Assembly: GCA_963666515.2 (NCBI GenBank)
Contig: OY762897.2
Location: 3,936,001 to 4,000,000 of the forward strand
Source: Candidatus Binatia bacterium
GTDB lineage: Bacteria > Desulfobacterota > Binatia > UBA9968 > JAJDTQ01
Reading direction: 5' to 3'
DNA: 64,000 bases
Part shown: piece after piece, positions 15,001 to 29,379 of the stretch
How the letters are laid out: each line of letters begins with the position of its first letter
How positions within the stretch are numbered: position 1 is the first letter of the stretch
Made by a program: the position numbers and the translations under genes
Notes under the pieces: generated by a model
Told to the model about the DNA's origin: nothing
Database searches by the model: none
What the model saw: the letters and a program-made list of their open reading frames with translations, nothing else

Positions 15001-15183
15001 AGCCCGGAGGCGCTGGCCCGGCATCTGGTCCGGGAGTTGGGAGTGCACGACGGTCCGGGAAGCTTTTCTGCCGAGGAAGATGCTTCCTCCGTGTCTGACC
15101 TGGAAACGGAGAGAGTTCAAGGTCTGTCGGAGCAGGAGTTCCTGAAAGAAGCATCGCGAGTGCTGGGAGAGGATCATGAGTAG
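1..15183 (+). CDS. Modular type I PKS, 5'-truncated by the window: [KRs-KR-ACP]-[KS-AT-DH-ER-KR-ACP]-[KS-AT-DH-ER-KR-ACP]-docking
   Basis: KS DTVCSS/DTACSA, HGTGT and GHLE motifs; AT GHSVG; DH HRVFGQVAAP; ER LVHAGAGGVG; KR YLVTGGxGGIG; three ACP LGMDSL motifs. Confidence 0.97.
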   Translation: MSERKQRVLLAVDEKWGQEGEADAAGVEVFRLEQRSRESWRSLLEGVVGEGGGVRGVVHVGGMSGQGEGAGSEEMAADVRESLGSGLALVQGLLDAGVEPGDGLWLVTRGGQVLGGEGGGELIGSVMWGFGRTLWWEAGQLRARLVDLDPAEPGSGFGVLADELLNPDREREIAYRGGVRQVLRLARVGRAGKAAGEGGLLRGDGTYLVTGGMGGIGLEVAGWLADHGARSMVLNGRREPEGAAMVAVEALRERGVDVRVELADVADGDAVAAMVERMDRELPPLAGVFHSVGVLADGALGNQDWGRFERVLWPKVLGAWHLHRATEARELDLFVLFSSVTGVLGNAGQANHAAANAFLDQLARHRRALGLAGQSIAWGAWSGVGEAEEQRERIGERLAASGAGWMTPRQGLGVLERVVRGGEATSVATMMDWESYGAGPRDVPPLLEELVTVSGVGEGASRAGELLDRVREAAASEREGLLLEFVQGELQEVLQTRSLPAAGVGFFDLGMDSLMAVDFRNRLNRGLGGAVVLSSTVVFDHGSAAALARHLAEELGVREVSEGVLRRRRVVGGGEDGIAVVGMACRFPGGGGVDGFWRLLDSGGDAVTNGRVNPPGGPYGVVASGDGPSIRWGGFIEDVELFDAEFFRIAPVEARLLDPQQRLLLETSWEALESAGIDAGRLRGSPTGVYAGISNNDYAEVVTREDAVSPYMVTGNSGATAIGRVAFTLGLEGPAVAVDTVCSSALVAVHQAVLGLQRGDADLALAGGVNVLLSATVTESVVRAGMLSPDGRCKTFDASADGFVRGEGCGMVVLKRLRDAEADGDRIWGVIRGSAINHDGASAGLTVPNGSAQERVIREALRRAGLESWEVDYLEAHGTGTELGDPIEIHAAAAVYGAGRDGAQPLRVGSVKTNVGHLEAAAGVAGLMKVLLSMNHGVIPKHLHFREPNPHVDWERLPLRVASEPEVWPRREGRPARAAVSSFGVSGTNAHVVVEGYGDAAGPEEDRLPGGPAVAVGWPEGASEYRPAEGAGGVTGARERRLLPLSGHTEKALRALAARYAEWLEERAGLSSSADTDGGDSGPAGADPLADVAWTAAVGRSHHGRRAAVTFGGAEELREKLAGLAAGGSASEAAVGARAVGESGEVRKVAFLFTGQGSQWAGMGRELYRREPVFCAVLDRCEEAFRGLRGESLLAVMFGEGGDRGSLDDTRWTQPALYALEAGLAALWGSVGVRPAAVLGHSVGEIAAAYAAGVFSLEAGMRFAARRGELMGSLPAAGPDAGAMAAVFAPAAGVEALVAAVNVEMGSERLGMAAYNGAHQVVSGLAGAVEAMLERCAREGVRAERLRVSQGFHSVLMDPILDELEGLLAGVDVTGPAVALVSDVTGGVLPAGEAMDGAYWRRQAREPVAFGAGVAALAGMGVDVLVELGPRPVLGGMAALAWPVEEGGGNVSGEPGARFGGPVVLTSLKGRGGGGGDGSSDGGFVEAVGGAYASGLALGFEGLFVGEERRRVSLPGYPFQRQRYWADAPRRRRRAGGLEHPLLGERRELPGGETTFETELYATEPAWLSEHRVFGQVAAPGAMYGAMALSAASLTGGSRYGSVTGGGVAVEEVQIHAPLVLPEGEGDGDEPGRTVFVAVAAMEAGGSRPVKIYSKGEDEKEWTLHAEARTGGGDAVRQAPARLDVEALKKGLSELDTAEFYRGFAAAGVEFGGSFRTVQGLWRGPGEAVGDVCLGEGWKDGEAGLHPVLLDGCFQVLGAALGAGAEEEGRGTAAGGATYLPFGWERLWVEGEMPERVTCHARVCGVDGGGDGGDEGKGSPAEVVTADLCLYGDDGRLVGEVSGLVLKRASRSAFLSGAVRTEDLLYAPVWRKAGLEGEVREADFLVSPAEAEEESGLWVLSSDDDGEGLSLAEELAGRNQRVVLAVGEGAAGVEGPGVRGVEVVGLDMRSRGGWHRLLEGLPEEARLRGVVHLGALSGHGSGAGSAELAADVERGTGSALALAQGLVDAGIEPSGGMWLVTRGAQVVDGERGGELSGSALWGLGKTLALEAGQLKPRLVDLDPEDETGSGVLVEELLHPDRETEVAYRGGSRRVLRLVRGGTRLVLPEGADWRLVSGADGLLESVRAERVPARALGSGELRVAVEAAGLNFRDVMVALRLVDLDASLGGEFCGRVLEVGAEVTGFSAGDRVVGFAPGGLGPEAVTRAEVVARAPAGMTPAELATVPVVFTTVALAFELSGLKGGERVLVHAGAGGVGLAAIQMAQSLGAEVYATASAPKRRYLESLGVAEVFDSRSTRFGEEVLGATGGEGVDVVLNSLTGEGFIEASLWCLKEGGRFVEIGKRGIWSEEGMRKARPDVDYHVLALDRLLEAEPGRVGRVLRGVTERVGAAELQPLRRSVWGMGEAVEAMEYMSSGRHVGKLVLRVSSGGLREDGTYLVTGGLGGIGLELAGWLADHGARSMVLNGRREPEGAAMAAVEALRERGVDVRVELADVADGDAVAAMVERMDRELPPLAGVFHSVGVLADGALGNQDWGRFERVLWPKVLGAWHLHRATEARELDLFVLFSSVTGVLGNAGQANHAAANAFLDQLARHRRALGLAGQSIAWGAWSGVGEAEEQRERIGERLAASGAGWMTPRQGLGVLERVVRGGEATSVATMMDWESYGAGPRDVPPLLEELVTVSGVGEGASRAGELLDRVREAAASEREGLLLEFVQGELQEVLQTRSLPAAGVGFFDLGMDSLMAVDFRNRLNRGLGGAVVLSSTVVFDHGSAAALARHLAEELGVREVSEGVLRRRRVVGGGEDGIAVVGMACRFPGGGGVDGFWRLLDSGGDAVTNGRGTQAGGGRTGQVLEGSWTGWGGFIEDVELFDAEFFRIAPVEARLLDPQHRLLLETSWEALESAGMDTGRLKGSRTGVYAGISGNAYGSLAAVVKEESANLYLATGNSGATAIGRVAFTLGLEGPAVAVDTACSASLVAVHQAVSGLRTGDADLALAGGVNVLLSLGAEEFSVEGMLSPDGRCKTFDASADGFVRGEGCGMVVLKRLRDAEADGDRIWGVIRGSAINHDGASAGLTVPNGSAQERVIREALRRAGLESWEVDYLEAHGTGTELGDPIEIHAAAAVYGAGRDGAQPLRVGSVKTNVGHLEAAAGVAGLMKVLLSMNHGVIPKHLHFREPNPHMDWERLLVRVASEPEAWPRREGRPARAAVSSFGISGTNAHVVLEEYGEAAGPEEDRLPGGPAVTVGWPEGTDEGRPEANGGMGTAERARRVLALSGRTEGAVRELAGRYVEWLEERAGLLSPVDAECERGASSGRELLADMAWTAGVGRSHHGCRAGLTFGEAGELREKLAGLASGSDAGPGVSTARETGGAPKVGFLFTGQGSQWAGMGRDLYEGEAVFRAVLDRCEEEVKRLRGESLLAVMFGEGGDRGSLDDTRWTQPALYALEAGLAALWGSVGVRPAAVLGHSVGEIAAAYAAGVFSLEAGMRFAARRGELMGSLPDAGPAAGAMAAVFAPAAGVEALVAVVNGEMGSERLGMAAYNGAHQVVSGRAGAVEEMLERCAREGVRAERLRVSHGFHSVLMDPILEELEGLLAGVDVTAPAVALVSDVTGGVLPAGEAMDGAYWRRQAREPVAFGAGVAALAGMGVDVLVELGPRPVLGGMAALAWPVEEGGGNVSGEPGARFGGPVVLTSLKGRAGGDGDGSSDGGFVEAVGGAYASGLALGFEGLFVGEERRRVSLPGYPFQRQRYWADAPRRRRRAGGLDHPLLGERRELPGGETTFETELYATEPAWLSDHRVFGQVAAPGAMYGAMALSAASLAGGSRYGSVTSGGVAVEEVQIHAPLVLPEGEGDGDEPGRTVFVAVAAMEAAGSRPVKIYSKGEDEKAWTLHAEARTGGGDAVRQAPARLDVEALKKGLSELDTAEFYRGFAAAGVELGGSFRTVQGLWRGPGEAVGDVCLGEGWKDGEAGLHPVLLDGCFQVLGAALGAGAEEEGRETAAGGATYLPFGWERLWVVGEMPERVTCHARVCGVEAGGDGGDEGEGSPAEVVTADLWLYGDDGRLVGEVSGLVLKRASRSAFSSGAVRTEDLLYAPVWRKAGFEGKVREADFPVSPAEVEEESGLWVLSSDDDGEGSALAEELAGRNQRVVLAVGEGAAGVEGPGVRGVEVVGLDMRCRGGWHRLLEGLPEEARLRGVVHLGALSGHGSGAGSAELAADVERGTGSALALAQGLVDAGIEPSGGMWLVTRGAQVVDGERAGELSGSALWGLGKTLALEAGQLKPRLVDLDPEDETGSGVLVEELLHPDRETEVAYRGGSRRVLRLVRAGTRLVLPEGADWRLVSGADGLLESVRAERVPARAPGSGELRVAVEAAGLNFRDVMMALKLVDVDASLGGEFCGRVLDVGADVTGFSAGDRVVGFAPGGLGPEAVTRAEVVARAPAGMTPAELATVPVVFTTVALAFELSGLKGGERVLVHAGAGGVGLAAIQMAQSLGAEVYATASAPKRRYLESLGVAEVFDSRSTRFGEDVLGATGGEGVDVVLNSLTGEGFIEASLSCLKEGGRFVEIGKRGIWSEEGMRKARPDVDYHVLALDRLLEAEPGRVGRVLRGVTERVGAAELQPLRRSVWGMGEAVEAMEYMSSGRHVGKLVLRVSSGGLREDGTYLVTGGLGGIGLELAGWLADHGARSMVLNGRREPEGAAMAAVEALRERGVDVRVELADVADGDAVAAMLERMDRELPPLAGVFHSVGALADGALGNQDWGRFERVLWPKVLGAWHLHRATEARELDLFVLFSSVTGVLGNAGQANHAAANAFLDQLARHRRALGLAGQSIAWGAWSGVGEAEEQRERIGERLAASGAGWMTPRQGLGVLERVVRGGEATSAAMLVDWELYGAGPRDVPPLLEELVTVAAAGVGEEERRGALLERLRGVRAPEREGLLLEFLQRELQAVLHMPSLPAAGVGFFDLGMDSLMAVEFRNRVNRGLAGVTALASTAVFDHASPEALARHLVRELGVHDGPGSFSAEEDASSVSDLETERVQGLSEQEFLKEASRVLGEDHE
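600..14730 (+). repeat. Tandem near-identical PKS module duplication, period ~6681-6690 bp
   Basis: Same codons recur at 1054, 7744 and 14425 and at 4048 and 10729; long identical stretches visible between copies. Confidence 0.95.
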
Positions 15184-18100
15184 GTCCGACAAGTACTACG
15201 AGCTTTCCAGAAAACTGCTTGCCCAGGTCAACGTTCGAGAGCGCAAGATCGCTGAATTCACGCAGCCCATAGCGGTGGTGGGTCTGGCGTGCCGTTTTCC
15301 CGGAGGATCGGATGTGACCGGATTCTGGCGGCTGCTGGAGTCCGGCGGAGATGCGATCACGAAGGGTCGTGGGACACGGTCGGCTGGAGGTCGGGACGGG
15401 CAGGTTCAGGAAGGATCGTGGGAAGGCTGGGGAGGCTTCATCGAGGACGTGGAGTTGTTCGACGCGGAGTTTTTTCGGATCGCTCCGGTGGAAGCGCGGT
15501 TGCTGGATCCGCAGCATCGGTTGCTGCTGGAGACGAGTTGGGAGGCATTGGAGTCGGCGGGTGTGGATGCAGGGCGTGTGAAAGGCAGCCGGACGGGGGT
15601 CTATGCGGGGATCTCCGGCAACGAATACCGGATGATGGCGGCAGCGGCGGCGAGGGAGGAATCGGCGAACCTGTATATGGTCACGGGGAACAGCGGGAGC
15701 ACGGCCATCGGCCGGGTGGCGTTCACGCTGGGACTGGAGGGACCCGCGGTGGCGGTGGATACCTCGTGCTCGTCGTCTTTGGTGGCGGTGCATCAGGCAG
15801 TGTCGGGGCTGCGGAATGGAGATGCGGACCTGGCGCTGGCCGGAGGAGTGAACGTGTTGTTGATGCCGCCGGGGGCGGAGGAGTTCAGCGTCGAGGGGAT
15901 GCTGTCGCCGGACGGGCGCTGCAAGACGTTCGACGCGTCGGCGGACGGGTTCGTGCGGGGCGAGGGGTGCGGGATGGTGGTTCTGAAGCGGCTGCGGGAC
16001 GCGGAGGCGGACGGGGACCGGATCTGGGGCGTGATCCGGGGTTCGGCCATAAACCACGACGGCGCGAGCGCCGGACTGACGGTGCCGAACGGGTCGGCGC
16101 AGGAGCGGGTGATCGAGGAGGCGCTGGGCCGCGCCGGGCTGGAGTCCTGGGAGGTGGATTACCTGGAGGCGCACGGCACCGGGACGGAGTTGGGGGACCC
16201 GATCGAAATTCATGCGGCTGCGGCGGTGTACGGGGCGGGCCGGGATGGGTCGCAGCCGTTGCGGGTGGGGTCGGTGAAGACGAACGTGGGGCACCTGGAG
16301 GCGGCTGCGGGGGTGGCGGGTTTGATCAAGGTGCTGCTGTCCATGAATCATGGGGTGATCCCGAAGCACCTGCACTTCCGGGAGCCGAACCCCCACATGG
16401 ACTGGGAGCGGCTGCTGGTGCGGGTGGCGTCGGAGCCGGAGGTCTGGCCGCGGAGGGAGGGGCGTCCGGCGCGCGCTGCGGTGAGTTCGTTCGGGATATC
16501 GGGGACCAACGCTCACGTGGTTCTGGAGGAATACGGTGAAGCCGCGGGGTCGGAGGGAGGCCGGTCGCCCAGGGGGCCGGCGGTAGCGGTGGGATGGCCG
16601 GAAGGAGCATCGGAGTATCGGCCGGCGGAGGGACCCGCCGTTGCGACGGGGGCGCGGGAGCGGCGGCTGCTGCCGTTGTCCGGGCACACGGAAGAGGCTT
16701 TGCGCGCGTTGGCCGGGCGTTACGCGAACTGGCTGGAGGATCGCGTGCCGCCCCCGGCTGACGTCGGTGGCGGGAATTGGGGCGCCGTCGGGAAAGCTCT
16801 CCTCGCGGACGTGGCGTGGACCGCGGGGACGGGCCGGAGCCACCACGAGCATCGCGCCGGGTTGACGTTCGCCGAAGCCGGTGAATTGCGGGAGAAGCTC
16901 GCGGCGCTGGCAGGGAACCGGGAAGCGTCCGAGGCGCCGGCGGGTTCCGGGTCGAGGACCAAAGTGGCCTTTCTGTTTGCGGGTTACGGCAGCCAGTGGG
17001 TGGGCATGGGCCGGGACGTCTACGACCGCGAGCCGGTGTTCCGCGCGGTCCTGGACCGGTGCGAGAAGGCGTTTCGTGATCTCAGGGGGGCGTCCCTGCT
17101 GGACGCGGCCTTCGGGGATGCCGCCGGCGTGGACCTGAAAGACCCCACCTGGGGGCATCCCGCGGTGTACGCCGTGCAGACCGGCCTCACGGCGCTGCTG
17201 GCAAGCGTCGGGATCAGGCCGTTCGCGGTCATGGGTTACAGCCTGGGAGAGATCGCGGCCGCGCACGTGGCGGGCGTGTTCTCGCTGGAAGACGGTCTGC
17301 GTTTTGCGGCGTTGCGCGGCGAGCTGATGGCTTCGCTGGTCGCGGACCCGTCGGAATCGGGTCATGCCGTGTCCGTGTACGAGTCGCCCGAGCGCGTGTC
17401 GGAGTTGATGGAGGAGGTCAACCGGGAACACCGGGGGATGGAGTTGAGCGTGGCGGCGTATGCCGGCGCCTACCAGGTGGCGGCCGGGGCGCCGGAGGTG
17501 GTGGGCGCTTTGCAGGAGCGGTGTGTCGCGGAGGGCGTGCGCGCGGAACGTCTGCCGGTGAACGTGGGGTTTCACAGCGCGGTCGTGGACCCGATCCTGG
17601 ACGGCCTGGAGGCGGCGATGGAGGGCGTGACGGTGTCGCCGCCGGCGCTCGCCATGGTGAGCAATGTGACCGGTCGCGTGTTCCGGGCGGGGGAGACGTT
17701 GGACGGCGCCTACTGGCGGCGGCAGGCGCGGGAGCCGGTGAGGTTTTCCGGCGGGGTGGTCGCGTTGGCCGAGCTGGGAGTGGACGTGTTGATGGACGTC
17801 GGGCCGCAGCCGCGCGTGGGTCTGCTGGCGACGACGATGTGGCCCACCAACCCGCCGCCGGCCGTGGTGGTGGGGATGAAACGGCCGTCCGAGGAGGACG
17901 CCGGGGCCTCGCCAGGTTGGGCGGAGGCGGTGGCGGAAGCGTATGCGGCCGGGCTGGACGTGAAGTTCGAAGGTCTGTTCGCGGGCGAGGAGCGGCGGCG
18001 GGTGCTGCTGCCGGGGTATCCGTTCCAGCGGCAGCGCTACTGGGCGGACGCGCCGAGGCGTCGTCGGCGGGTCGGGGAGGCGCACCACCCGCTCCTGGGA

Positions 18101-21100
18101 GAGCGGCGGGATTCGGCCGGCGGCGAGACGACGTTCGAGACGGAACTGTACGCGTCGGAGCCGGGGTGGCTGCAGGACTACCGGGTGTTCGGGCAGGTGG
18201 CGGCGCCGGGGGCGCTGTACGGAGTGATGGCGCTGAGCGCCGAGGCGCCGCCGGAGGAGCCGCGGTCCGGCGGCAGCGGCGCCGCGGTGGAGGACATGCA
18301 GATGCACGCGCCGCTGGTGTTGCGGGGCGGGCGTGGGGAAGAAGACGATGAGCCGGGGCGCACGGTGCAGGTGGTGGTGAGCGCGGCCGAGGGGTCGGAG
18401 CCGCGTGAGGTGAAGATCTACAGCAAGGCGGACGAAGAGGAGAAGTGGACGCTGCACGCGGAGGCGCGGACCGCAGGGACGGTTGAAAAAGCCGGGGCGG
18501 TCGAGGCGGTGGACCTGGAAGGGCTGAAGGAGGGGCTGGAGGAGAAAGAGCCGGCGGGGTTCTATCGCGCGGCCGGGGAGATGGGCGTGGAGTTCGGGGC
18601 GTCGTTTCGGACGGTGACGGGGTTGTGGACGGGGGAGCGGGAGGCCGTGGGCGAAGTGAGGTTGGGGGACGGGCTGGGGGGGGCGGAGGGGGACCTGCAC
18701 CCGGCTCTGCTGGACGGGTGCTTCCAGGTCCTGGGAGCGGCCTTGGGGGCCGGAGCCAGGGAGGACGGAAGCTCCGGGCAAAAAGCGCCGGCGATGTACC
18801 TGCCGTTCGGGTGGGAGCGGCTGTGGATACGGGGCGGTCCGATGGAGGAGGTGACGTGCCGTGCGCAGGTGCGGGGAGGCGGGGAGAACGGCGTAGCGGA
18901 GGTGGTGGCCGCGGACCTGTGGATGTATGGGACGGGTGGGGAGTGCGTGGGGCTGGTGAAGGGACTGGCGCTGAAGCGGGCGAGTCGGAGTGCGTTCCTG
19001 TCCGTGGGAGTGCGGACGGACGATCTGGTGTACGTGCCGGAGTGGCGGGAAGGCGCAAGGGGCGTGGCGCAGCCTGCGGAGGAAGAAGCGGCGCCGGCCG
19101 GCGAGGGAAAGTGGGTGCTGTCGTCGGACGCCGGGCAGGAGGGGCTGGGGTTGGCGAAGGAGCTGGCAGGGAGGGATGAGCGGGTGTTGCTGGCGGTGGA
19201 AGACGGCTGGGGACATGAGGCGGAGGCGGAAGCCGCTGGAGTGGAGGTGGTCCGGCTGGACCTTCGGAGCCGGGAGAGCTGGCGCGGGCTGCTGGAAGGC
19301 GTCGTGGAGGAGGGCGGCGGAGTACGCGGGGCGGTTCACCTGGGAGGGATGAACGGACACGGAGCAGCGGCGGACGGGGAGGAGTTGGCCGCGGACGTGG
19401 AGGCCGCGCTGGGGAGCGGTCTCGGGCTGGTGCAGGGGCTGCTGGACGCGGGGGTGTCGCCCGAGGGGGGCGTATGGCTGGCGACGCGCGGCGGGCAGGT
19501 GTTGGGCGGGGAGGCCGGAGAAGGGTTGAGCGGCTCGGTGATGTGGGGATTCGGGAGGACTCTGTGGCGGGAGGCGAGGCGGTTGCGGGCACGCCTGGTG
19601 GACCTGGACCCGGCGGGTGGTGAAGCAGGGGGGATGGAGGAACTGGCGGAGGAGCTTCTGGCCCCGGACCGGGAGCAGGAGATTGCGTATCGCGGGGGAG
19701 TACGGCGTGTGCTGCGGCTGGCGCGTGCGGGACGGGTGGGGAAGGAGAGCGGCGGTGAGGGGGCGCTGTTGCGCGGGGACGGGACGTACCTGGTGACGGG
19801 TGGATTGAGGGGGATCGGGCTGGAGGTGGCGCGTTGGCTGGGCGATCAGGGGGCCGGGAAGATCGTGTTGAACGCCCGGCGGGAGCCCGGCGCGGAGGCG
19901 CAGGCGGTGATCGAGGAGTTGCGGGGCCGGGGCGTGGAGGTGCGGGTGGAACTGGCGGACGTGACGGACGGGGATGCGGTGGCGGCGATGGTGGAGCGCG
20001 TGGAGGAGGAGATGGGGCCTCTGGCCGGAGTGATTCATGCCGCCGCGGTGTTGTCGGACGGGGCGCTGAAGAACCAGGACTGGGAGCGGTTCGAGCGGGT
20101 GTTGTGGCCCAAGGTGAAGGGGGCGTGGCATCTGCACCGTGCGACCGCGGGACGGGAGCTGGACCTGTTCGTGCTGTTCTCGAGCGTGGCGGGGCTGATG
20201 GGGAACCCGGGCCAGTCGAGCTACGCCGCGGCCAACGTGTACCTGGACCAGTTGGCGCGTTGCCGTCGCGAGATGGGACTGGCGGGACAGTCGATCGTGT
20301 GGGGTGCGTGGTCCGGAGTGGGCCTGGCGGAGGCGTGGCGGGAACTCTTGAGGGAGCGGATGGCGGCCGCGGGAATGGACTGGATGACGCCGCGGCAGGG
20401 ACTCGGGGTGCTGGAGCGGGCTATACGGGGGGGCGAAGCGACCATCGCGGCCATGCCGGTGGACTGGGAGCTGTTCGCGGCCGCGGCGAAGGACGTGCCG
20501 CCGCTGCTGGAGGACCTGGTGACGGCTGCGGCAGGCGTTGGCGGCGGGGAGAGTCCGGCGGGTCAGGCGGGAGCATTGGTGGAGCGGCTGCGCGCGGCGC
20601 GGCCTGCGGACCGGGAGGGGATGGTGCTGGCGTTCGTGCAGCGTGAGCTGCAGGCCGTGCTCCAGGCGCCTTCTCCGCCGGCGCCCGCAGCGCGGTTTTT
20701 CGAGCTGGGCATGGACTCGCTGATGGCGCTGGAGTTCCGCGAGCGCCTGAACCGCGGTCTGGGCGGTGCCTGCGAGGTGTCGGGCACCGCAGTGTTCGAC
20801 CACCCCAGCCCCGAGGCGTTCGCCCGCCACCTGGTAGCGGAGCTGGGGTTGGTGGTGGAAGAGCCGCGGCCGTTGCCGGCGCCGCGGCGCCGGGCGGCGG
20901 CGCGTGGGGAGGACGCGGTAGCGGTGGTGGGGATGGCGTGCCGTTTTCCCGGAAGCCCGGACCTGGCGAGTTTCTGGCGTCTCCTGGAAGCGGGCGGCAA
21001 TGCGGTGACCGCCGGCCGCCCGGAGGTTTCGGCGGAACCGCCGGTCCCGGACGAAAGGTTCTGGGGCGGCTACATCGAGGACGTGGACCTGTTCGATGCC

Positions 21101-23539
21101 GGCTTCTTCGGCATCCCTCCGGTGGAGGCCCGGTACATGGACCCGCAGCAGCGGCTGCTGCTGGAGACGAGCTGGACGGCGTTGGAGTCCGCGGGGATGG
21201 ACCCGGGCAGCCTGAGGGGCAGCCGGACCGGGATCTACGTGGGCATCAGCGCCAACGACTACCGCTACGTGATGGCGGACGGCGGAGAGGCGGAGTTCAA
21301 CCCGTACCTGATAACCGGGAACGGCCTCAGCATGGCCATCGGCCGGGTGGCCTTCACGCTGGGCTTCGAGGGGCCGGCGGTGGCTGTGGACACGGCCTGC
21401 TCGTCATCCCTGGTGGCGGTGCACCAGGCGGTGTCGGCGTTGCAGCGGGACGAGGCGGACCTGGCGTTGGCGGCAGGGGTGAACGTGATCCTGTGGTCGA
21501 CTCGAACGGCCATGATGAAGGCCATGGGGGCGATGGCCGCGGATGGGCGTTGCAAGACGTTCGATGCATCGGCCGACGGATACGTCCGCAGCGAGGGGTG
21601 CGGGGTGGTGGCGCTCAGGCGGCTGCGCGACGCCGAGGCCGAAGGCCTCCCGATCTGGGGCGTCATACGGGGGTCGGCGGTGAATCACGGCGGCGGCGCG
21701 GCCGGCATGATGACGCCGAGCGGCCCGGCGCAGGAGCGGTTGATCGGCGAGGCGTTGGGACGCGCGCAAATCGAGCCTTCGGACGTGGATTACCTGGAAG
21801 CGCACGGGACTGGAACGTTCCTGGGCGATCCCATCGAGGTGCGGGCCGCGGCCGCGGCGTACGGCCGCGGGCGCGGCGCGGAGCGTCCCCTGCTGCTCGG
21901 TTCGGTGAAGACCAACATCGGCCACCTGGAGCCGGCCGCGGGCGTGGCCGGTCTGATCAAGGTGTTGCTGGCGATGGCCTACGGCAGGATTCCGAGGCAC
22001 CTGCATTTCAGGGAACCGAACCCGCACGTGCCGTGGGACCGCCTGCCGGTGCGCGTGGTGTCGGAGGCGGTGGAGTGGCCGTCTCGCGACGGCCTGCCGC
22101 GGCGCGCCGGGCTGAGTTCCTTCGGTCTGTCCGGGACCAACGCCCACGCGGTGCTGGAGGGCTACGGCGATGCATCGGGGCCGGCAGGCGTCTCGGGGGC
22201 GGCGGTGCCGGTGGGATGGCCCGCGGGAGTCCCGGAGTCGCCGTCCGAGGCCGCGGACGGCGACGGCGCGGGCGCGCGGATCCACCGTCTGCTGGTGTTG
22301 TCGGGGAATACGGGCGAGGCCTTGCGGGCGCTTGCCGGGCGGTACGTGCAATGGCTGGACGCGCGCGCGGACTCGTTTTCTTCAGCCGCCGGCGAAGACG
22401 GCTTTCGCCCGGACGGCGCGGACCTGCTGGCGGACGCCGCCTGGACCGCGGCGACGGGCCGGTTCCATCTTCCGCATCGCGCCGGCGTGACGTTCACCGA
22501 CGTGGAGCAGCTTCGGGCGCGGCTGTCGTCGCTGTCGTCCGGCGAGCCGGAGGCGTCCGCCGTCGCGGTGGGGTCCGGGGTCGCGGACAGGGCGGCCTTC
22601 CTCTTCCCTGGCGAGGGCAGCCAGTGGGCGGGCATGGGCCGGGACCTGTACGAGAGCGAGCCGGTGTTCCGGGCGGTGCTGGATCGTTGCGAGCAGGAGA
22701 TGCGCTCGTCGCGGGGAGAGTCGTTGCTGGACGTGATGTTCGGGACCGGGGCGGAGTCGGACCTGGACCACGCCCGCTGGGCGCAGCCGGCGGTCTATGC
22801 GTTGGAGAGCGGTTTGGCGGCGCTGTGGGCCGGCCTCGGGGTGACGCCGTTCGCGGTGCTGGGACACGGCGTGGGCGAGATCGCCGCGGCGCACGCCGCC
22901 GGGGCGTTCTCCCTGGAGGACGGCCTGCGTTTGGCGGCGTCGCAGGGGGAGTGGACGGGCTCGCCGCCGGTTCAGGAAGACCTGGAGCGTTTTCTGGAGC
23001 GCGTGGCGGTGTCGCCGCTACGGTTGCCTCTGGTGAGCGGCCCGACGGGCCGGGTGACGGAGGAAGGCGAGTTGCCGGACGGACGGTACTGGATCCGCCA
23101 GGCGCGGGAAGCGGTGGCGTTTCAGGCCGCCGCGGGCGCGCTGGCGGAGCTGGGGGTGGACGCACTGGTGGAGATCGGGCCGCAGCCGGTGCTGGGCGCC
23201 GCCGCAGCGTCGGCGTGGCCGTCCGGGTCGGAGGCGCCCGGCAGGAGACCGCGCGCCTCTTCGTCCGGAAGGGGGGCCGCGGCGCGAGCCCCGGAGCAAT
23301 GGCCCCTGTTGCTCGCCGATGAAGGGGATCAGCCCCCTGCGGTGGTTTCAAGCCTGCGCCGGCAGGAGGATGGGAAGCCGGTGGCGGGAGCATTCGCCGA
23401 AGGGGTTGCCGGGGCGTATGCCGCGGGTCTGAGACTGCGTTTCGAGGGTCTCTTCACGGGCGAAAAGCGGCGCCGTCTGTCCTTGCCGGAATATCCGTTC
23501 CAGCGCCGCCGCTACTGGGTGGACCCGTCGAAGCCGTGA
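15176..23539 (+). CDS. Type I PKS: KS-AT-DH0-KR-ACP-KS-AT0 (SupA-like C-terminus, no TE)
   Basis: Overlaps upstream stop by 8 nt; N-terminal docking-like helix; KS DTSCSS and DTACSS; AT GYSLG; DH DYRVFG; ACP LGMDSL; last AT GHGVG lacks catalytic Ser. Confidence 0.96.
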   Translation: MSRSDKYYELSRKLLAQVNVRERKIAEFTQPIAVVGLACRFPGGSDVTGFWRLLESGGDAITKGRGTRSAGGRDGQVQEGSWEGWGGFIEDVELFDAEFFRIAPVEARLLDPQHRLLLETSWEALESAGVDAGRVKGSRTGVYAGISGNEYRMMAAAAAREESANLYMVTGNSGSTAIGRVAFTLGLEGPAVAVDTSCSSSLVAVHQAVSGLRNGDADLALAGGVNVLLMPPGAEEFSVEGMLSPDGRCKTFDASADGFVRGEGCGMVVLKRLRDAEADGDRIWGVIRGSAINHDGASAGLTVPNGSAQERVIEEALGRAGLESWEVDYLEAHGTGTELGDPIEIHAAAAVYGAGRDGSQPLRVGSVKTNVGHLEAAAGVAGLIKVLLSMNHGVIPKHLHFREPNPHMDWERLLVRVASEPEVWPRREGRPARAAVSSFGISGTNAHVVLEEYGEAAGSEGGRSPRGPAVAVGWPEGASEYRPAEGPAVATGARERRLLPLSGHTEEALRALAGRYANWLEDRVPPPADVGGGNWGAVGKALLADVAWTAGTGRSHHEHRAGLTFAEAGELREKLAALAGNREASEAPAGSGSRTKVAFLFAGYGSQWVGMGRDVYDREPVFRAVLDRCEKAFRDLRGASLLDAAFGDAAGVDLKDPTWGHPAVYAVQTGLTALLASVGIRPFAVMGYSLGEIAAAHVAGVFSLEDGLRFAALRGELMASLVADPSESGHAVSVYESPERVSELMEEVNREHRGMELSVAAYAGAYQVAAGAPEVVGALQERCVAEGVRAERLPVNVGFHSAVVDPILDGLEAAMEGVTVSPPALAMVSNVTGRVFRAGETLDGAYWRRQAREPVRFSGGVVALAELGVDVLMDVGPQPRVGLLATTMWPTNPPPAVVVGMKRPSEEDAGASPGWAEAVAEAYAAGLDVKFEGLFAGEERRRVLLPGYPFQRQRYWADAPRRRRRVGEAHHPLLGERRDSAGGETTFETELYASEPGWLQDYRVFGQVAAPGALYGVMALSAEAPPEEPRSGGSGAAVEDMQMHAPLVLRGGRGEEDDEPGRTVQVVVSAAEGSEPREVKIYSKADEEEKWTLHAEARTAGTVEKAGAVEAVDLEGLKEGLEEKEPAGFYRAAGEMGVEFGASFRTVTGLWTGEREAVGEVRLGDGLGGAEGDLHPALLDGCFQVLGAALGAGAREDGSSGQKAPAMYLPFGWERLWIRGGPMEEVTCRAQVRGGGENGVAEVVAADLWMYGTGGECVGLVKGLALKRASRSAFLSVGVRTDDLVYVPEWREGARGVAQPAEEEAAPAGEGKWVLSSDAGQEGLGLAKELAGRDERVLLAVEDGWGHEAEAEAAGVEVVRLDLRSRESWRGLLEGVVEEGGGVRGAVHLGGMNGHGAAADGEELAADVEAALGSGLGLVQGLLDAGVSPEGGVWLATRGGQVLGGEAGEGLSGSVMWGFGRTLWREARRLRARLVDLDPAGGEAGGMEELAEELLAPDREQEIAYRGGVRRVLRLARAGRVGKESGGEGALLRGDGTYLVTGGLRGIGLEVARWLGDQGAGKIVLNARREPGAEAQAVIEELRGRGVEVRVELADVTDGDAVAAMVERVEEEMGPLAGVIHAAAVLSDGALKNQDWERFERVLWPKVKGAWHLHRATAGRELDLFVLFSSVAGLMGNPGQSSYAAANVYLDQLARCRREMGLAGQSIVWGAWSGVGLAEAWRELLRERMAAAGMDWMTPRQGLGVLERAIRGGEATIAAMPVDWELFAAAAKDVPPLLEDLVTAAAGVGGGESPAGQAGALVERLRAARPADREGMVLAFVQRELQAVLQAPSPPAPAARFFELGMDSLMALEFRERLNRGLGGACEVSGTAVFDHPSPEAFARHLVAELGLVVEEPRPLPAPRRRAAARGEDAVAVVGMACRFPGSPDLASFWRLLEAGGNAVTAGRPEVSAEPPVPDERFWGGYIEDVDLFDAGFFGIPPVEARYMDPQQRLLLETSWTALESAGMDPGSLRGSRTGIYVGISANDYRYVMADGGEAEFNPYLITGNGLSMAIGRVAFTLGFEGPAVAVDTACSSSLVAVHQAVSALQRDEADLALAAGVNVILWSTRTAMMKAMGAMAADGRCKTFDASADGYVRSEGCGVVALRRLRDAEAEGLPIWGVIRGSAVNHGGGAAGMMTPSGPAQERLIGEALGRAQIEPSDVDYLEAHGTGTFLGDPIEVRAAAAAYGRGRGAERPLLLGSVKTNIGHLEPAAGVAGLIKVLLAMAYGRIPRHLHFREPNPHVPWDRLPVRVVSEAVEWPSRDGLPRRAGLSSFGLSGTNAHAVLEGYGDASGPAGVSGAAVPVGWPAGVPESPSEAADGDGAGARIHRLLVLSGNTGEALRALAGRYVQWLDARADSFSSAAGEDGFRPDGADLLADAAWTAATGRFHLPHRAGVTFTDVEQLRARLSSLSSGEPEASAVAVGSGVADRAAFLFPGEGSQWAGMGRDLYESEPVFRAVLDRCEQEMRSSRGESLLDVMFGTGAESDLDHARWAQPAVYALESGLAALWAGLGVTPFAVLGHGVGEIAAAHAAGAFSLEDGLRLAASQGEWTGSPPVQEDLERFLERVAVSPLRLPLVSGPTGRVTEEGELPDGRYWIRQAREAVAFQAAAGALAELGVDALVEIGPQPVLGAAAASAWPSGSEAPGRRPRASSSGRGAAARAPEQWPLLLADEGDQPPAVVSSLRRQEDGKPVAGAFAEGVAGAYAAGLRLRFEGLFTGEKRRRLSLPEYPFQRRRYWVDPSKP

Positions 23540-23572
23540 TTTCCGGGTAAACGGGACAGGGGAGGAACTGCC

Positions 23573-25135
23573 ATGGAGATGGGCCTGCTTTCCGGTTTGA
23601 TTCAATTGAGCTGCCTCCCGGCCTGGCGGCGGTTCGAACAGGCGACCGCAGACCCGGACCGCGCGCAGCGGGAGGCCTGGGAGCGCATTCGCCGCAAGTG
23701 CCGGCAGGCTCCCTACTGGCGGGAACGGTGGGGCGGGCGAAGCGCGCCGCCGCTGGCGGATTTGCCGGTCACCGATTACGCCGATTACGAGGCCGCTTTC
23801 GACGAGGCGTTCGAGGGCGGTCTCTCTCCCACTACGGGTGAAGCCATTGTGAGCTGGCTGGTCAGCAGCAACAGCACCGGGAAGGCGAGCAAGCGTTATC
23901 CCCTGTATGCGGACCACGAGCGACGGCTGAAGGCTGCTTGGGAAACGTGTCTCTACTCCATGGCCGTGACCGTGCCCGACATTCCGCTGCAGCCGGTCCT
24001 TTCCCCATACTCGGCCAACAACGAGGCGCCGTCGCCCGCGGGCGTGCCCGTTCACCGGGTCACCGAGAAGTGGATGGGCTTGTTGCTCGGCGGCGGGCAG
24101 TCCGGGAACCTGTTTCCGCGAGAATTGGTTGCGAGGCCGGACTTGTGGGACGAGTGGGCGCCGCTCTATGCCGTTGCCGGCGACGCAAGCATGGCGGCGG
24201 CCATTACCGCGGACCGCATCGCGGTCATGCGCGAGGAGGTGGTCGCCGGCATGGACCGCTGGTGGCCCTATCTGGAGGGGCGGTCAGCCCCGCCGCCGCC
24301 GTTGCCGCCCATCCGGGTATCCACGGAACGCCTGAACCACCTGCGATCCGTTTTCGCCGGCGCGCCGCCGGGCATGCGCCGGATATGGCCGAGCATGAGG
24401 GTCGTGTCGTGCTGGACCGTCGCGAGCGCCGGCGCCGCGGTGCCCCTGCTGGAGCCGTGGCTTGAAGGCGTGCGTCTGCTCGGCGGGCCTTATTCGACCG
24501 CTGAAAGCGGACCGGTCACCGCCCCCCTTTTCGACGGCGAGGACGGACACCCGGTCAATCCGGACGTCAACGTTACCGAGTTGCTCCCCGAAGGCGCCGA
24601 GCCTGAGCCCCGCAACGTGATCCCGCTGTCCCAGGCCGAGGCGGGGCGGCGGTACGAGTTGATCGTGACCACGCCCGGCGGCCTGATCCGCTATCGCACG
24701 AGCGACGTCTTCGTCTGCGACGGATTCCATCGCCGCATGCCGCGGCTGACTTTCTGCTCCAAGGTGGCGTTTTCATTGAACGTGTCCGAGACCGTGCGTC
24801 TGCCTGAGGACGCCGTGGTCAAGCTGCTGATGGAGCATGGATACCGTTTGCAGGACGACCTGATGCTGGGCCCCCATCCCACCGGAAGAGCCATTGTCAT
24901 GTACATCAAGGAGGGCTCGGGCCACAGGCCCGCGGGCGACGCCTTCGATCGCGGCTTGTGCGAGTTGTCCGCCGACTATGCGGCCAAGCGGCGGCAAGGA
25001 CTGCTCCGATACGTCCACAACATGGTCGTCCCCGCGGCGCACCCGATGTGGGCGCGGCCGGGCCTGGCCAAGGCGCGCTACGTGCTTCCCGAAGCCCCGG
25101 AGGACCTGGGGGTAGGGGCCACCGTCAGGGGGTAG
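23573..25135 (+). CDS. GH3-family acyl-adenylate/amido synthetase-like protein
   Basis: SSNSTGKASKRYP (cf. SSGTT..K.IP), PYSTAE (cf. YASSE), YELIVTTPGGLIRYRTSD (cf. YELVVT..GLYRYRLGD); RBS GGAGGA. Confidence 0.8.
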   Translation: MEMGLLSGLIQLSCLPAWRRFEQATADPDRAQREAWERIRRKCRQAPYWRERWGGRSAPPLADLPVTDYADYEAAFDEAFEGGLSPTTGEAIVSWLVSSNSTGKASKRYPLYADHERRLKAAWETCLYSMAVTVPDIPLQPVLSPYSANNEAPSPAGVPVHRVTEKWMGLLLGGGQSGNLFPRELVARPDLWDEWAPLYAVAGDASMAAAITADRIAVMREEVVAGMDRWWPYLEGRSAPPPPLPPIRVSTERLNHLRSVFAGAPPGMRRIWPSMRVVSCWTVASAGAAVPLLEPWLEGVRLLGGPYSTAESGPVTAPLFDGEDGHPVNPDVNVTELLPEGAEPEPRNVIPLSQAEAGRRYELIVTTPGGLIRYRTSDVFVCDGFHRRMPRLTFCSKVAFSLNVSETVRLPEDAVVKLLMEHGYRLQDDLMLGPHPTGRAIVMYIKEGSGHRPAGDAFDRGLCELSADYAAKRRQGLLRYVHNMVVPAAHPMWARPGLAKARYVLPEAPEDLGVGATVRG

Positions 25136-25144
25136 AGGCGGCCG

Positions 25145-26059: not shown

Positions 26060-26144
26060 GCTGTCGGCCGAGGCGTCAGGTCAGCTGCACAATGTCGGCG
26101 TCTTTCCGTCGCGAGCCGTCCGAGCACGCGACGGTAGCGCCCGA

Positions 26145-26387
26145 TCAACTGGCGTTGGCTTCGAGGTAGTTGATCACATCCCTCATGCACGAGAACTTCA
26201 CGAGATCGTCGGGAAGAATCGTCACGTTGAACTCCTTGTTGACAAGGATTATGAACGAGACGAGTGCCGACGAACTGATCTGGGCGTCATCGAAACTGGA
26301 GTCCAAATCCATGTTGCTTTTGGCTTCCACTTCTGAGGCAAAGTGCTCTCTCGCCAGAGATTTGACGCGCTCTTCAACGGTGGCCAT
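26145..26387 (-). CDS. Stand-alone acyl carrier protein (SupB-like)
   Basis: 80 aa acidic, MATVEERVK N-terminus, DSSFDDAQISSSALV helix II region, RDVINYLE C-terminus; RBS GGAGGAG. Confidence 0.82.
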   Translation of the reverse strand: MATVEERVKSLAREHFASEVEAKSNMDLDSSFDDAQISSSALVSFIILVNKEFNVTILPDDLVKFSCMRDVINYLEANAS

Positions 26388-26577
26388 GATTTCTCCTCCC
26401 TCACTGGTTGGTATGGATACCGAATCTGGTATCCATGTTTCCCGATATGAAGCGATGACAAACACAAAGGAAGCATAAAACTGTTCGGGATGCAAGGGTT
26501 CCCGCTTGCTTGTGAATCTGCCCAATTGCGATATGCTGGTCACTATGGACCTCAACCTCTGAAGGAAGGAGCAGGTG

Positions 26578-27537
26578 ATGAGCAGTCATCCCTTCGACAA
26601 CGAGTTCCTCGTCACCGGCGAGCACAGGGAGAAATTCCGGCGCGACGGCTTCGTCAAGCTGGAAGGGTTCTTCAACGCCGCCGTGGTCAACACGCTGCTC
26701 GACCGTGTCGAAGTCGAAATGGGCCGGGCGGCTCCATCGAGCACGGCTTCCGATTTTCTGTTCAGTCGAGTGCGGTACGACTTCAAGAGCGAAAAGGCCG
26801 ACGTCTATGAGCTGCTGGAACGGCCCTACTTCCGGCGGGCTCTGACGGACCTGGTCGAACGCGACCTCTTCCTGACCTTCGAAGTGTGCTTCGAGATTGA
26901 AAAAAAACGCCAAAAGGGGTTTCCATGGCATGTTGACCTGCAGAGTTTCGGCTACCAGGTCGCAACCGAGCACGCGTGCTCGCTGTGGACGCCGCTGCAT
27001 TCCATCGATCCGAAGGGGCAGCGGGGCGGGATGGCTTATGTCCCCATGAACGTCGTATCGGGTGATTTCACCTACCAGGTCGAGCGAGCCATCGTGTCGA
27101 CGGTGGAGGCCAAGGAGCGAGCCGGGGTCAGGACGAACATGCTCGAGTTCGCTGCGTTGAATGCGGGGATACTCAATTCGCCGACCATGGTCGAGATATT
27201 CGAGAACCACCAGGTCGAAGACGACTTCGAGCCCGGCGACGTGCTCCTGTTCAACAAACTGGTCGTCCATCGAAGCATCATGCTCGGTGAGGGACCCCTT
27301 TCCAGGCGCGCCGCCTACACGATGCGTTTCGTCGATGCCGGGTCGCACTATAGTCTGCAGGGGGCGCGGGATCTCGAATTCCCGGTGGAAATGTACGGGA
27401 AGGCGCCCATTCCGTATAAACCGGTTACACGCCAACACATAGAAATCGCGGAAGCCGGGGCGCAGGACGGCGACGTTCTCGCGGAATGCGACTACTTCGA
27501 CAACCGCGATCGTCGCACGGTCCGGCGCGGTTCATAG
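26578..27537 (+). CDS. PhyH-family Fe(II)/2-oxoglutarate dioxygenase
   Basis: FRRDGFVKLEG, WHVD (HxD), LWTPL, PGDVLLF...VHRS, distal Arg. Confidence 0.85.
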   Translation: MSSHPFDNEFLVTGEHREKFRRDGFVKLEGFFNAAVVNTLLDRVEVEMGRAAPSSTASDFLFSRVRYDFKSEKADVYELLERPYFRRALTDLVERDLFLTFEVCFEIEKKRQKGFPWHVDLQSFGYQVATEHACSLWTPLHSIDPKGQRGGMAYVPMNVVSGDFTYQVERAIVSTVEAKERAGVRTNMLEFAALNAGILNSPTMVEIFENHQVEDDFEPGDVLLFNKLVVHRSIMLGEGPLSRRAAYTMRFVDAGSHYSLQGARDLEFPVEMYGKAPIPYKPVTRQHIEIAEAGAQDGDVLAECDYFDNRDRRTVRRGS

Positions 27538-29202
27538 CTGCTCGGATGGCGCTTGGGCAGCTTGTCGAGGCTCTTCAGGCTCTCCAGTCGCTCCTTCCAG
27601 GTCCGGCCTCCTCAGGAACAGCGCCGCCGCCACCGACAGCGCCGCGGCCGCGGCGATCACCATGAACGCCTCGCCCACCGCCCCGGACAGGGCGGACACG
27701 AGAGAGTCGAGCAGCATGTCGGCTACGCCGCCGGCGTGTCCGGCGGCCTCCAGGTCGGCGCCGAGCGCATCCCTGGCGGCCGGATCCATCACCGCCCGCG
27801 GCTCGGCCGTCAGGGCGTCGAGGCCGCCCGGCGGGAGCGCCGCCCTGACCGCGTCGGGGAGCGCCGTCTCCAGCCTCCGCGAGAATCCGTTCGCCATCAC
27901 CGCGCCCATGACGGCAAGGCCCAGCGTGGCCCCGATGGATCGGGAGAACTGAAGCGTGGCGGTGGAGGCCCCCACGAGACTGTAAGGCACCGAGTTCTGA
28001 ACCCCCACGTTCATGGTCGCCAGCGTGCCGCCCACGCCGAGGCCGAGGACCGCGACGTACGACGCGGCCCGCCAGAGGCCGGCATCCTCCCCCAGGGTGA
28101 CGAGAAGAAACGCGCCAGCGGCCGTGATCCCCGTGTTCACCAGCGCTTCCACCCTGTAGTGGCGGCGCTCCCCGCTGAGCCGGCGTCCCGCCAGCGCGGC
28201 CCCCAGCAGCACCGCCAGCAACATGGGGGTCATGAACACGCCGCTGCGGGCGGCCGAAGCGCCGAGCACCGCCTGGAAAAACAGGTTGGTGAAAATGATG
28301 CTCCCGTACAGCACCATGCCGGTCAACAGCAGCACCGCGGCCCCGGCGCTCACCATCGGGTTGCGGTATATCTCCAGCGGCATGATCGGCGAGCGCGCCC
28401 TGGACTCGACGGCCACGAAGGCTGCGGTCATGGCCAGTCCGAAGGCCATGAGGCCGATCACCTCGGCCGAGGTCCAGTCGTATTGGACCCCACCCATTGA
28501 AAACGCCAGCAGCAACGGCACCACGGCCAGTGTGAGGCACGCCGTTCCGGGATAGTCCAGGCCGCGGTGCTCGACCTCGGACGCGATGGCCGGGAACGTT
28601 CGTGCGATCAGCGCGAGCACCACCAGCGCCGCGGGCACGTTGAACAGGAAGATCCAGTGCCACGAAAAGGCGTCGGTGATGAGCCCGCCCAGAACCGGCC
28701 CTATCGCCACGGCCACGCCCAGCACCATCGCGCCCAGCCCCTGAGCCTTGCCCCGTTCCTCCGGCGGAAACAGGTCGGCCACCGCCACGAGGCTGTTGGT
28801 CGCCAAGGTGCCGCCGCCGATGCCCTGGATGGCGCTGGCGGCGATGAGCTGGGTCATCGACTGGCTCGTGCCGGCTGCCAGGGCGCCGATGATGAAGACG
28901 GCCAGGCCGAGCATGAAGAAGAGCCGGCGCCCGTACATGTCGGCAAGCCTGCCCACGATCGGCACGGCCACCGCGGCCGCCACCAGGTAGGCGGTGGACG
29001 GCCAGGTATAGCGGTCGAACCCGCCCAGTTCGGCGACGATGCGGGGCAGCGCCGTGGACAGGACGGTCTGGGCCAGGGTGGACAGGAACAGCGCAAGCAA
29101 CACGCCGGTCGTCGCCCACCGAAGCTGCGCCCCGGAGAGCCTTGCGCGGTCCGCGGCCACCGGCGGATCGCCGCCAGGTTGCTCTTCATCGCGTCGTTGC
29201 AT
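27532..29202 (-). CDS. MFS drug:H+ antiporter, DHA2 (EmrB/QacA) family
   Basis: GRLADMYGRR motif A, GPVLGG motif C, WHWIFLFNVP, many TM helices. Confidence 0.92.
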   Translation of the reverse strand: MQRRDEEQPGGDPPVAADRARLSGAQLRWATTGVLLALFLSTLAQTVLSTALPRIVAELGGFDRYTWPSTAYLVAAAVAVPIVGRLADMYGRRLFFMLGLAVFIIGALAAGTSQSMTQLIAASAIQGIGGGTLATNSLVAVADLFPPEERGKAQGLGAMVLGVAVAIGPVLGGLITDAFSWHWIFLFNVPAALVVLALIARTFPAIASEVEHRGLDYPGTACLTLAVVPLLLAFSMGGVQYDWTSAEVIGLMAFGLAMTAAFVAVESRARSPIMPLEIYRNPMVSAGAAVLLLTGMVLYGSIIFTNLFFQAVLGASAARSGVFMTPMLLAVLLGAALAGRRLSGERRHYRVEALVNTGITAAGAFLLVTLGEDAGLWRAASYVAVLGLGVGGTLATMNVGVQNSVPYSLVGASTATLQFSRSIGATLGLAVMGAVMANGFSRRLETALPDAVRAALPPGGLDALTAEPRAVMDPAARDALGADLEAAGHAGGVADMLLDSLVSALSGAVGEAFMVIAAAAALSVAAALFLRRPDLEGATGEPEEPRQAAQAPSEQL

Positions 29203-29379
29203 TGCTTGCGACCCTCGTCGGTCCGAGCCCTTGTCCAATGGTCCGTTCAACAACTTGTTGTACCCGACTGAAAATCCCTTGCCTATTGCTCCTCTTGCTT
29301 CATCTTCCGTCCGCTTTATGCGACAGTGGGGGTAAGATCAGGTGCGAAAATTTCTGAAGCGTCCGCACGGGGATATCAA

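Follow-up and report, generated by a model that had tools for sequence, protein, structure and literature searches.

A 64,000-nt stretch of the genome of a Candidatus Binatia bacterium (G000:C1:3936001-4000000, hereafter the window; the genome, G000, measures 4.67 Mb in two contigs, with 65.8% G+C) contains the end of a 72-kb modular cis-acyltransferase (cis-AT) polyketide synthase (PKS). The last protein of this assembly line, PKSD, ends in a ketosynthase (KS) followed by a degenerate acyltransferase (AT0), with neither an acyl carrier protein (ACP) nor a thioesterase (TE) behind them, a terminus of the type found in the sponge symbiont ubiquitous PKS (Sup) family. A stand-alone ACP and an alpha/beta hydrolase are encoded close by, and comparison of these sequences with Sup loci makes Sup-type termination probable. 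Between PKSD and this pair lies a gene of the GH3 family, putatively encoding an ATP-dependent acyl acid amido synthetase. That this enzyme acts on the product of the PKS is a tentative proposal, to which we lean slightly less than to its opposite, and we give the explanation as a whole (termination and GH3 role combined) an even chance of being right.

The terminal KS-AT0, its free ACP and its hydrolase

PKSD contains one full module, the eleventh of the line, in front of its terminal domains (residues: KS 30-401, AT 599-903, dehydratase (DH) 971-1273, ketoreductase (KR) 1536-1713, ACP 1821-1886, KS 1913-2278). The following features, in positions of the window, bear on termination:

15176..23539, + strand: PKSD, 2787 aa, which comprises module 11 (KS-AT-DH-KR-ACP) and, behind it, the terminal KS-AT0
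20636..20833, + strand: last in-line ACP (PKSD residues 1821-1886, Pfam PP-binding)
20912..22009, + strand: terminal KS (PKSD residues 1913-2278), which retains the Cys-His-His triad
22598..23242, + strand: AT0 (PKSD residues 2475-2689), with Gly in place of the nucleophile and a loss of about 84 residues
25145..26059, − strand: Sup-type alpha/beta hydrolase, 304 aa, with conserved HGNG, FHSxSA, GADP and TH motifs
26145..26387, − strand: stand-alone ACP, 80 aa from the likely Met start (open reading frame (ORF) open to 26555), a homolog of the small ACP of sup loci

Pfam detects no carrier, thioesterase or reductase domain after the terminal KS; the sole PP-binding stretch in PKSD is that of residues 1821-1886, and the C-terminus of the protein lies 98 residues beyond the last AT match. 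The AT0 match itself is split in two (PKSD 2475-2597 and 2594-2689), omitting positions 120-208 of a normal AT. Its nucleophile motif reads GHGVG, versus GHSVG in 10 of the 11 other ATs of the line, and PGEGSQ takes the place of TGQGSQ. An earlier note on this DNA, made from the sequence alone, had described an assembly line ending in KS-AT0 without ACP or TE, and Pfam, the degenerate AT and the domain map all agree with that description.

The same combination of a Cys-His-His KS and a degenerate AT at the very end, without ACP or TE, recurs across the Sup family. We aligned 110 Sup-type termini, namely that of the window, that of the SupA encoded elsewhere in G000, that of the PKSD ortholog P0030 and those of 107 proteins of 3150-3650 aa. 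All 110 have the active-site Cys of the terminal KS; its first His is kept in 109 of them and its second His in 107. In 107 of the 110 the AT nucleophile is a residue other than Ser (Gly in 88, Asp in 14, Asn in 3, Glu in 1 and Arg in 1), and the short AT0 spacing of 61-81 residues is likewise found in 107; from the nucleophile to the YWxRQ motif, the AT0 of the window measures 73 residues, versus 157 in the three termini with long spacing. The His residues of a KS serve decarboxylation, and retention of both in the terminal KS argues for condensation rather than mere relay of the chain.

A search of a protein collection with the AT0 region (PKSD residues 2290-2787) gave 6036 matches. Among the best 120, which we inspected, many are proteins of about 3400-3500 aa that match at 99-100% coverage and 41-50% identity and carry KS, AT, DH, methyltransferase (MT), enoylreductase (ER), KR and ACP families. 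The source names among these 120 include SA1_PKSC from a Discodermia dissoluta symbiont as well as metagenome-assembled genomes (MAGs) of Dehalococcoidia and Nitrospira. SA1, a multimodular PKS, resembles the line in the window in being highly reducing, methyltransferase-bearing and from a sponge symbiont; SA1_PKSC (P0043) matches at 52% identity over only 62% of the query, which does not imply a Sup-type end. Those relatives that carry names are sponge-symbiont or sponge-MAG records, and one partial holder of the stretch is labelled sponge metagenome.

Canonical Sup loci also supply the partners of this terminus. A supA-type match was found in 15 of the 27 other genomes of the genus, and G000 itself encodes a canonical single-module SupA of 3426 aa (C1:2389535-2398084, − strand) with its own ACP and hydrolase. 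We compared nine sup loci, eight of those 15 and the one in G000. In all nine, an ACP ORF of 73-87 aa and then a hydrolase that is 55-60% identical to that of the window come directly after the AT0 end, on its strand, which indicates that the free ACP and the hydrolase in the window belong with its KS-AT0. In the window, the pair is inverted relative to the PKS and GH3 lies between it and PKSD. Within the hydrolase family, all 120 sequences have the His and Ser of FHSxSA, the Asp of GADP and the C-terminal His, and the HGNG positions are kept in 112-119. A profile search of the hydrolase against the PDB returned generic alpha/beta hydrolases only (best E 3e-5), which is uninformative as to thioesterase versus acyltransferase. 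We consider KS-AT0, free ACP and hydrolase well supported as a unit. The earlier note had likewise paired the free ACP and the hydrolase with the terminal KS-AT0, and the same partners stand at 9/9 sup loci; chain transfer and release by them would be the corresponding chemistry.

The Sup PKS has been described as abundant, sponge-specific and monomodular, with mid-chain-branched fatty acids proposed as its products (PMC4245539, PMC3908369, PMC9864124). Sup-type genes dominate PKS surveys of sponge microbiomes (PMC4245539, PMC3908369), and SupE is listed as a permease (PMC3908369). In the accessible parts of two of these papers the product is only proposed, and neither a demonstrated product nor a release mechanism is given (PMC4245539, PMC3908369). 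The line in the window shares with Sup clusters the terminal Cys-His-His KS, an AT0 that has lost its Ser and has an equal internal deletion, the homologous ACP and hydrolase beside the PKS end, and modules of the KS-AT-DH-MT-ER-KR-ACP type. Unlike Sup clusters, which have one module in about 3450 aa, it comprises eleven modules and about 24100 aa in four genes, and it is preceded by an AMP-binding protein resembling fatty acyl-AMP ligases (FAAL-like) and a loading ACP. The description as sup-like given in the earlier note thus holds for the terminus but cannot mean a small PKS here, since the line has 11 modules and spans 72 kb, extending beyond the window. Further differences are the inverted ACP-hydrolase pair and the addition of GH3, a PhyH-family dioxygenase and a DHA2-family efflux pump of the major facilitator superfamily (MFS). 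At the nine sup loci, within 14 kb downstream and 12.5 kb upstream and at E <= 1e-4, we found no PhyH, MFS pump or FAAL, nor any GH3.

The GH3 gene and its tie to the PKS

Between the end of the PKSD stop codon (23539) and the ATG of GH3 (23573) lies the 33-nt gap read in the earlier note, and GH3 has a strong ribosome-binding site of its own:

23560..23567, + strand: Shine-Dalgarno-like GGGGAGGA, 5 nt before the GH3 ATG, as read from the sequence
23573..25135, + strand: GH3-family gene, 520 aa, putative ATP-dependent acyl acid amido synthetase

A consensus pattern scan, which is not evidence in itself, predicted neither a promoter nor a terminator in the gap. GH3 is most likely co-transcribed with the PKS; the data sets listed as holders of this stretch include none of RNA.

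Family membership and fold of the GH3 protein are confirmed. Pfam assigns the GH3 N-terminal domain (PF03321) at 45.9 bits and GH3_M (PF23571) at 49.7 bits, above the gathering score of 23.6 bits, and in a protein atlas the protein falls among bacterial GH3 clusters; no NCBIfam model matched it. A profile of 19 homologs searched against the PDB returned plant GH3 enzymes in 10 of 10 matches (E 4e-27 to 4e-19). With an AlphaFold model (predicted local distance difference test (pLDDT) 78.4, predicted template modelling (pTM) score 0.74), Foldseek placed plant GH3 proteins at ranks 1-28 (best E 5e-25, template modelling (TM) score 0.72), followed by PaaK-type ligases at about 1e-10. The fold is shared with GH3.5, GH3.6, JAR1/GH3.11, PBS3/GH3.12 and OsGH3-8 over about 510-550 columns at TM scores of 0.59-0.72. 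GH3 enzymes bind their nucleotide through three motifs, a P-loop of the S-S-G-T-S type, Y-x-x-S-E and Y-R-x-G-D. All three align with the window protein, which retains Y-x-x-[ST]-E and Y-R-x-x-D. Unlike the plant enzymes, to which it is 16-20% identical, it is a bacterial protein in a PKS setting and is about 60-90 residues shorter.

Besides the tight junction, evidence that ties GH3 to this PKS comes from relatives. A 6541-nt contig of run X5 (study P2) covers 21910-26281 of the window at about 92% identity and continues with 27606-29481, thereby linking the end of PKSD to GH3, the hydrolase, a portion of the ACP and the pump. In run X6 (study P3, labelled sponge metagenome), PKSD, GH3 and the hydrolase (P0153) are bridged by a contig of 3812 nt that aligns to 22447-23541 and 23615-25974 with an identity of about 84-87%. 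Scans of genome and metagenome contigs with the GH3 alignment returned only relatives of 24-48% identity and not those of 55-85%, for which the placement of partners is inferred from same-size contig records and not from sequence. On that basis, the GH3 protein P0003 (85% identical) goes with the hydrolase P0152 (91%) on a record of 420587 nt, and P0004 (69%) with the hydrolase P0155 (61%) on a record of 7334 nt. The gene is intact in G000 and in the 85% and 69% relatives, and in a FastTree phylogeny of the 19 aligned proteins the window GH3 (P0002), P0003 and P0004 form one clade.

Several observations weigh against a role of GH3 in this pathway. Synteny is to be expected anyway in relatives as close as those behind the two bridging contigs. 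Only 28 proteins match GH3 in a collection of 5.8 billion sequences, and no ortholog was found in any of the 27 other genomes of the genus or among the 400 genomes sampled from the phylum. GH3 is absent from the nine canonical sup loci, as noted above. More distant relatives, at 24-48% identity, were examined at 11 loci (eight from genomes, three from metagenomes, judged within the available flanks), none of which (0/11) has a match to any of 15 other proteins or domains of the cluster at E <= 1e-5; PKS domains, the Sup hydrolase, ACP, PhyH and MFS homologs are all absent from these flanks. The conserved neighbourhood of these relatives is a different one. A scan of 20 ORFs neighbouring GH3 at seven of the loci (L005-L011, from MAGs of Acidobacteria, Paracoccaceae and Pseudomonadales) found a P450 in L006, L007, L009 and L011 (twice fused to a GPP34 domain), the membrane acyltransferase Acyl_transf_3 in L005, L006, L010 and L011, and AcrB-type pumps of the resistance-nodulation-division (RND) class in L005, L006, L008 and L011, besides a type III PKS in L005 and an MpaB/Lcp-type oxygenase in L007. 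The setting of the wider GH3 subfamily is thus lipid tailoring and export, not modular PKS; the same setting also counts in favour of a tailoring role for GH3 as such. The recurring set of P450, Acyl_transf_3, GH3 and RND pump may be an uncharacterised lipid-modification cassette.

The gene itself adds to these doubts. The C-terminal domain GH3_C (PF23572) is undetected by Pfam in the window protein and in precomputed annotations of 26 close relatives; in the structural alignment to GH3 enzymes this end of the protein is nevertheless covered, with low confidence. P0002 and P0003 have the P-loop S-S-N-S-T, with Asn in the place of the Gly that is present in the other 17 of 19 aligned homologs. 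Codon usage points in the same direction. In the four PKS genes, G minus C at codon position 3 is 0.31-0.46 (59-67% G and only 19-28% C), versus a genome mean of -0.09 (sd 0.08), which makes them the four most extreme of the 1388 long ORFs of G000 that served as reference. Values for GH3 (+0.02), the FAAL-like gene (-0.09) and the canonical SupA gene (+0.09) lie outside these extremes, and neither the hydrolase and ACP nor the PhyH gene and pump share the bias of the PKS genes; the lack of it in GH3 and the FAAL-like gene suggests histories separate from those of the PKS genes. Finally, the PKSD ortholog P0030 (84% identical, 2774 aa) goes with the hydrolase P0151 (74%) on a same-size contig record of 45096 nt, and none of the 28 GH3 matches is recorded from that contig or from the 3812-nt contig of X6. 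The latter has a 1-nt deletion inside GH3, at window position 24086. Together these suggest that GH3 may be decaying, or a pseudogene, in the X6 lineage.

A bacterial precedent has been described. A GH3-family gene (lol1/lpg2225, about 509 aa) is part of the legionellol cluster of Legionella pneumophila, which is of polyketide/fatty-acid type and also encodes a stand-alone ACP and an MFS pump; unlike the line in the window, this cluster relies on discrete β-ketoacyl-ACP synthase III (KAS III)-type enzymes and has no modular PKS (PMC5640695). The authors of that paper suspected that GH3 couples the acid to an amine, and they noted that GH3 genes are found now and then in PKS clusters, citing those of borrelidin and fostriecin (PMC5640695). 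Inactivation of the Legionella gene left legionellol unchanged (PMC5640695), so that the single test of an amide-finishing role has been negative, a further point against such a role here. The statement in the earlier note that no characterised PKS pathway is finished by a GH3 enzyme holds in the literature searched (subscription journals and supplements were outside it), in which no function is assigned to a bacterial GH3 in a PKS pathway.

The strongest competing explanation is that GH3 is a passenger that acts on another carboxylate or on none, the PKS product leaving as a free acid. It may have arrived together with the inversion of the ACP-hydrolase pair, from the P450, acyltransferase-3, GH3 and RND cassette of other bacteria. 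The absence from sup loci, the different neighbourhood of distant relatives, the codon bias, the substituted P-loop, the possible frameshift in X6 and the Legionella knockout all favour it. The 33-nt gap with its own ribosome-binding site and without a predicted terminator, the intact gene in three lineages, the recurrence of the GH3/Sup-hydrolase pairing at 69%/61% identity and the single clade of Sup-linked GH3 proteins speak against it. We regard it as unlikely, though by no means negligible. Co-occurrence of GH3 and PKS, proposed in the earlier note as a check, was thus seen in the bridging contigs of two close relatives but not in the sup loci, the genus and phylum genomes or the 11 distant loci, and the link between GH3 and the PKS is weaker than that between the PKS and the Sup terminus.

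GH3 might also belong to the pathway without being an amino-acid conjugase. It could activate the released acid anew as an acyl-adenylate and transfer it to another nucleophile, for instance the thiol of the free ACP, a hydroxyl or a lipid head group, or conjugate and thereby inactivate the product for self-protection before export. The adenylating fold of the ANL type, the PaaK-type ligases that come next after plant GH3 proteins, the undetected GH3_C and the membrane O-acyltransferases and pumps that adjoin GH3 relatives would fit such a function, but all matched GH3 enzymes of solved structure are acyl acid amido synthetases, and we consider it improbable. A role in starter-acid activation for the loading ACP at the N-terminus of PKSA, the first protein of the line, was suggested by the need of that ACP for loading in trans and by the adenylation of carboxylic acids by GH3 enzymes, but was dropped as very improbable when a 608-aa AMP-binding (FAAL-like) gene was found directly upstream of PKSA, GH3 lying 72 kb away at the release end.

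GH3 is a lineage-specific addition; that it is an amido synthetase which tailors the released acid is plausible, and that it is optional is equally so.

The assembly line and the flanking genes

The first ORF of the window extends 5.3 kb further upstream and is preceded by two more giant ORFs, and with PKSD these form a line of 72.3 kb (G000:C1:3887213-3959539) with four genes, 12 KS domains, 11 modules and about 24100 aa. Pfam and phmmer give the following domain map:

PKSA, outside the window: ACP, then KS-AT-MT-ACP, KS-AT-KR-ACP, KS-AT-DH-ER-KR-ACP and KS-AT-DH-MT-ER-KR-ACP
PKSB, outside the window: KS-AT-DH-KR-ACP, KS-AT-KR-ACP and KS-AT-DH-MT-ER-KR-ACP
PKSC, whole gene G000:C1:3930652-3951183, 6843 aa: KS-AT-DH-MT-KR-ACP, then KS-AT-DH-ER-KR-ACP twice
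1..15183, + strand: part of PKSC in the window, the 3' 5060 codons, with KR-ACP of module 8 and then two KS-AT-DH-ER-KR-ACP modules (the KS-AT-DH-MT of module 8 falls before the window start)

The Pfam lists of all four PKS proteins contain no thioesterase or reductase release domain. With an adjacent AMP-binding loader, an N-terminal ACP and modules with active-site motifs, the line has the make-up of a FAAL-primed cis-AT type I PKS. One KS departs from these motifs: KS1 of the line, at PKSA residues 97-468 outside the window, has Ser for the active Cys (DTASSSS) and is part of the KR-less ACP-KS-AT-MT-ACP module; it may be a decarboxylating or loading-type KS rather than a condensing one. 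The AT of module 11 (window 16970-17884, PKSD residues 599-903) carries GYSLG and AGYGSQ, versus GHSVG and TGQGSQ in the ten upstream ATs, and its GYSLG is also present in P0030. This AT could be the one that supplies the free ACP. In PKSC (window 600-15100), whole modules recur every 6681-6690 nt at 94-100% nucleotide identity, which points to recent duplication or gene conversion within the gene.

Beyond the ACP, the cluster continues with two genes:

26575..27537, + strand: PhyH-family Fe(II)/2-oxoglutarate dioxygenase (Pfam), 320 aa, a variable accessory gene
27532..29253, − strand: DHA2-family efflux pump of the MFS, whose longest ORF encodes 573 aa and which scores 234.2 bits with TIGR00711 (cut-off 230.2)

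The stand-alone ACP, alpha/beta hydrolase, PhyH dioxygenase and DHA2 exporter described in the earlier note are thus all present and adjacent. In the X5 contig, the region 26282-27605 with PhyH is replaced by about 298 nt, so that PhyH is not a constant part of the cluster; no NCBIfam model matched it. The G+C content at codon position 3 of the hydrolase, ACP and PhyH genes (0.62-0.77) is below that of their neighbours. The genes past 29.3 kb look unrelated: amidohydrolases (again without a matching NCBIfam model), a short-chain dehydrogenase/reductase, transporters, a 3383-aa protein with nine matched Calx-beta repeats (44184-54335, + strand) and a Cas4-Cas1 fusion protein of 570 aa (61821-63533, − strand).

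Proposed off-loading route and its meaning

The line may derive from the Sup family and have retained its terminus. It would be primed by the FAAL-like enzyme together with the N-terminal ACP, followed by eleven extension modules, and the presence of C-methyltransferases and full reduction in some modules suggests a long, methyl-branched and partly reduced acyl chain as the product. We infer the chemistry of the following steps from the domains and residues described above. The last KS, predicted to be catalytically intact, would accept the chain from the last in-line ACP, with the dead AT0 serving as a scaffold only. The terminal KS would then condense the chain with, or transfer it onto, the stand-alone ACP, from which the hydrolase, through its putative Ser-Asp-His triad, would free it as an acid. 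GH3 would have been inserted between the PKS and the now-inverted ACP-hydrolase pair in a small lineage. There, it would most likely adenylate the released acid and couple it to an amine or amino acid, after which the DHA2 pump could export the product, with PhyH as an optional hydroxylase. In its most specific form, in which GH3 was recruited as an off-line finisher and yields an exported N-acyl amino acid or N-acyl amine lipid, we hold this proposal to be doubtful.

Reuse of the Sup terminus at the end of an 11-module line suggests that it is a portable off-loading unit rather than a quirk of small PKSs. The near-complete conservation of the KS triad (107-110 of 110 termini) frames a biochemical question, namely whether the last KS condenses onto the free ACP. 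The insertion of GH3 amounts to a natural experiment, with a few lineages that have the gene, lack it or are perhaps losing it, and comparing lineages with and without it could reveal whether bacterial GH3 proteins convert polyketide acids into amides as a last step. If the proposal is true, this would be the first function assigned to a bacterial GH3 protein in polyketide biosynthesis, and it would open a chemical way into the Sup family of sponge symbionts, which is still uncharacterised.

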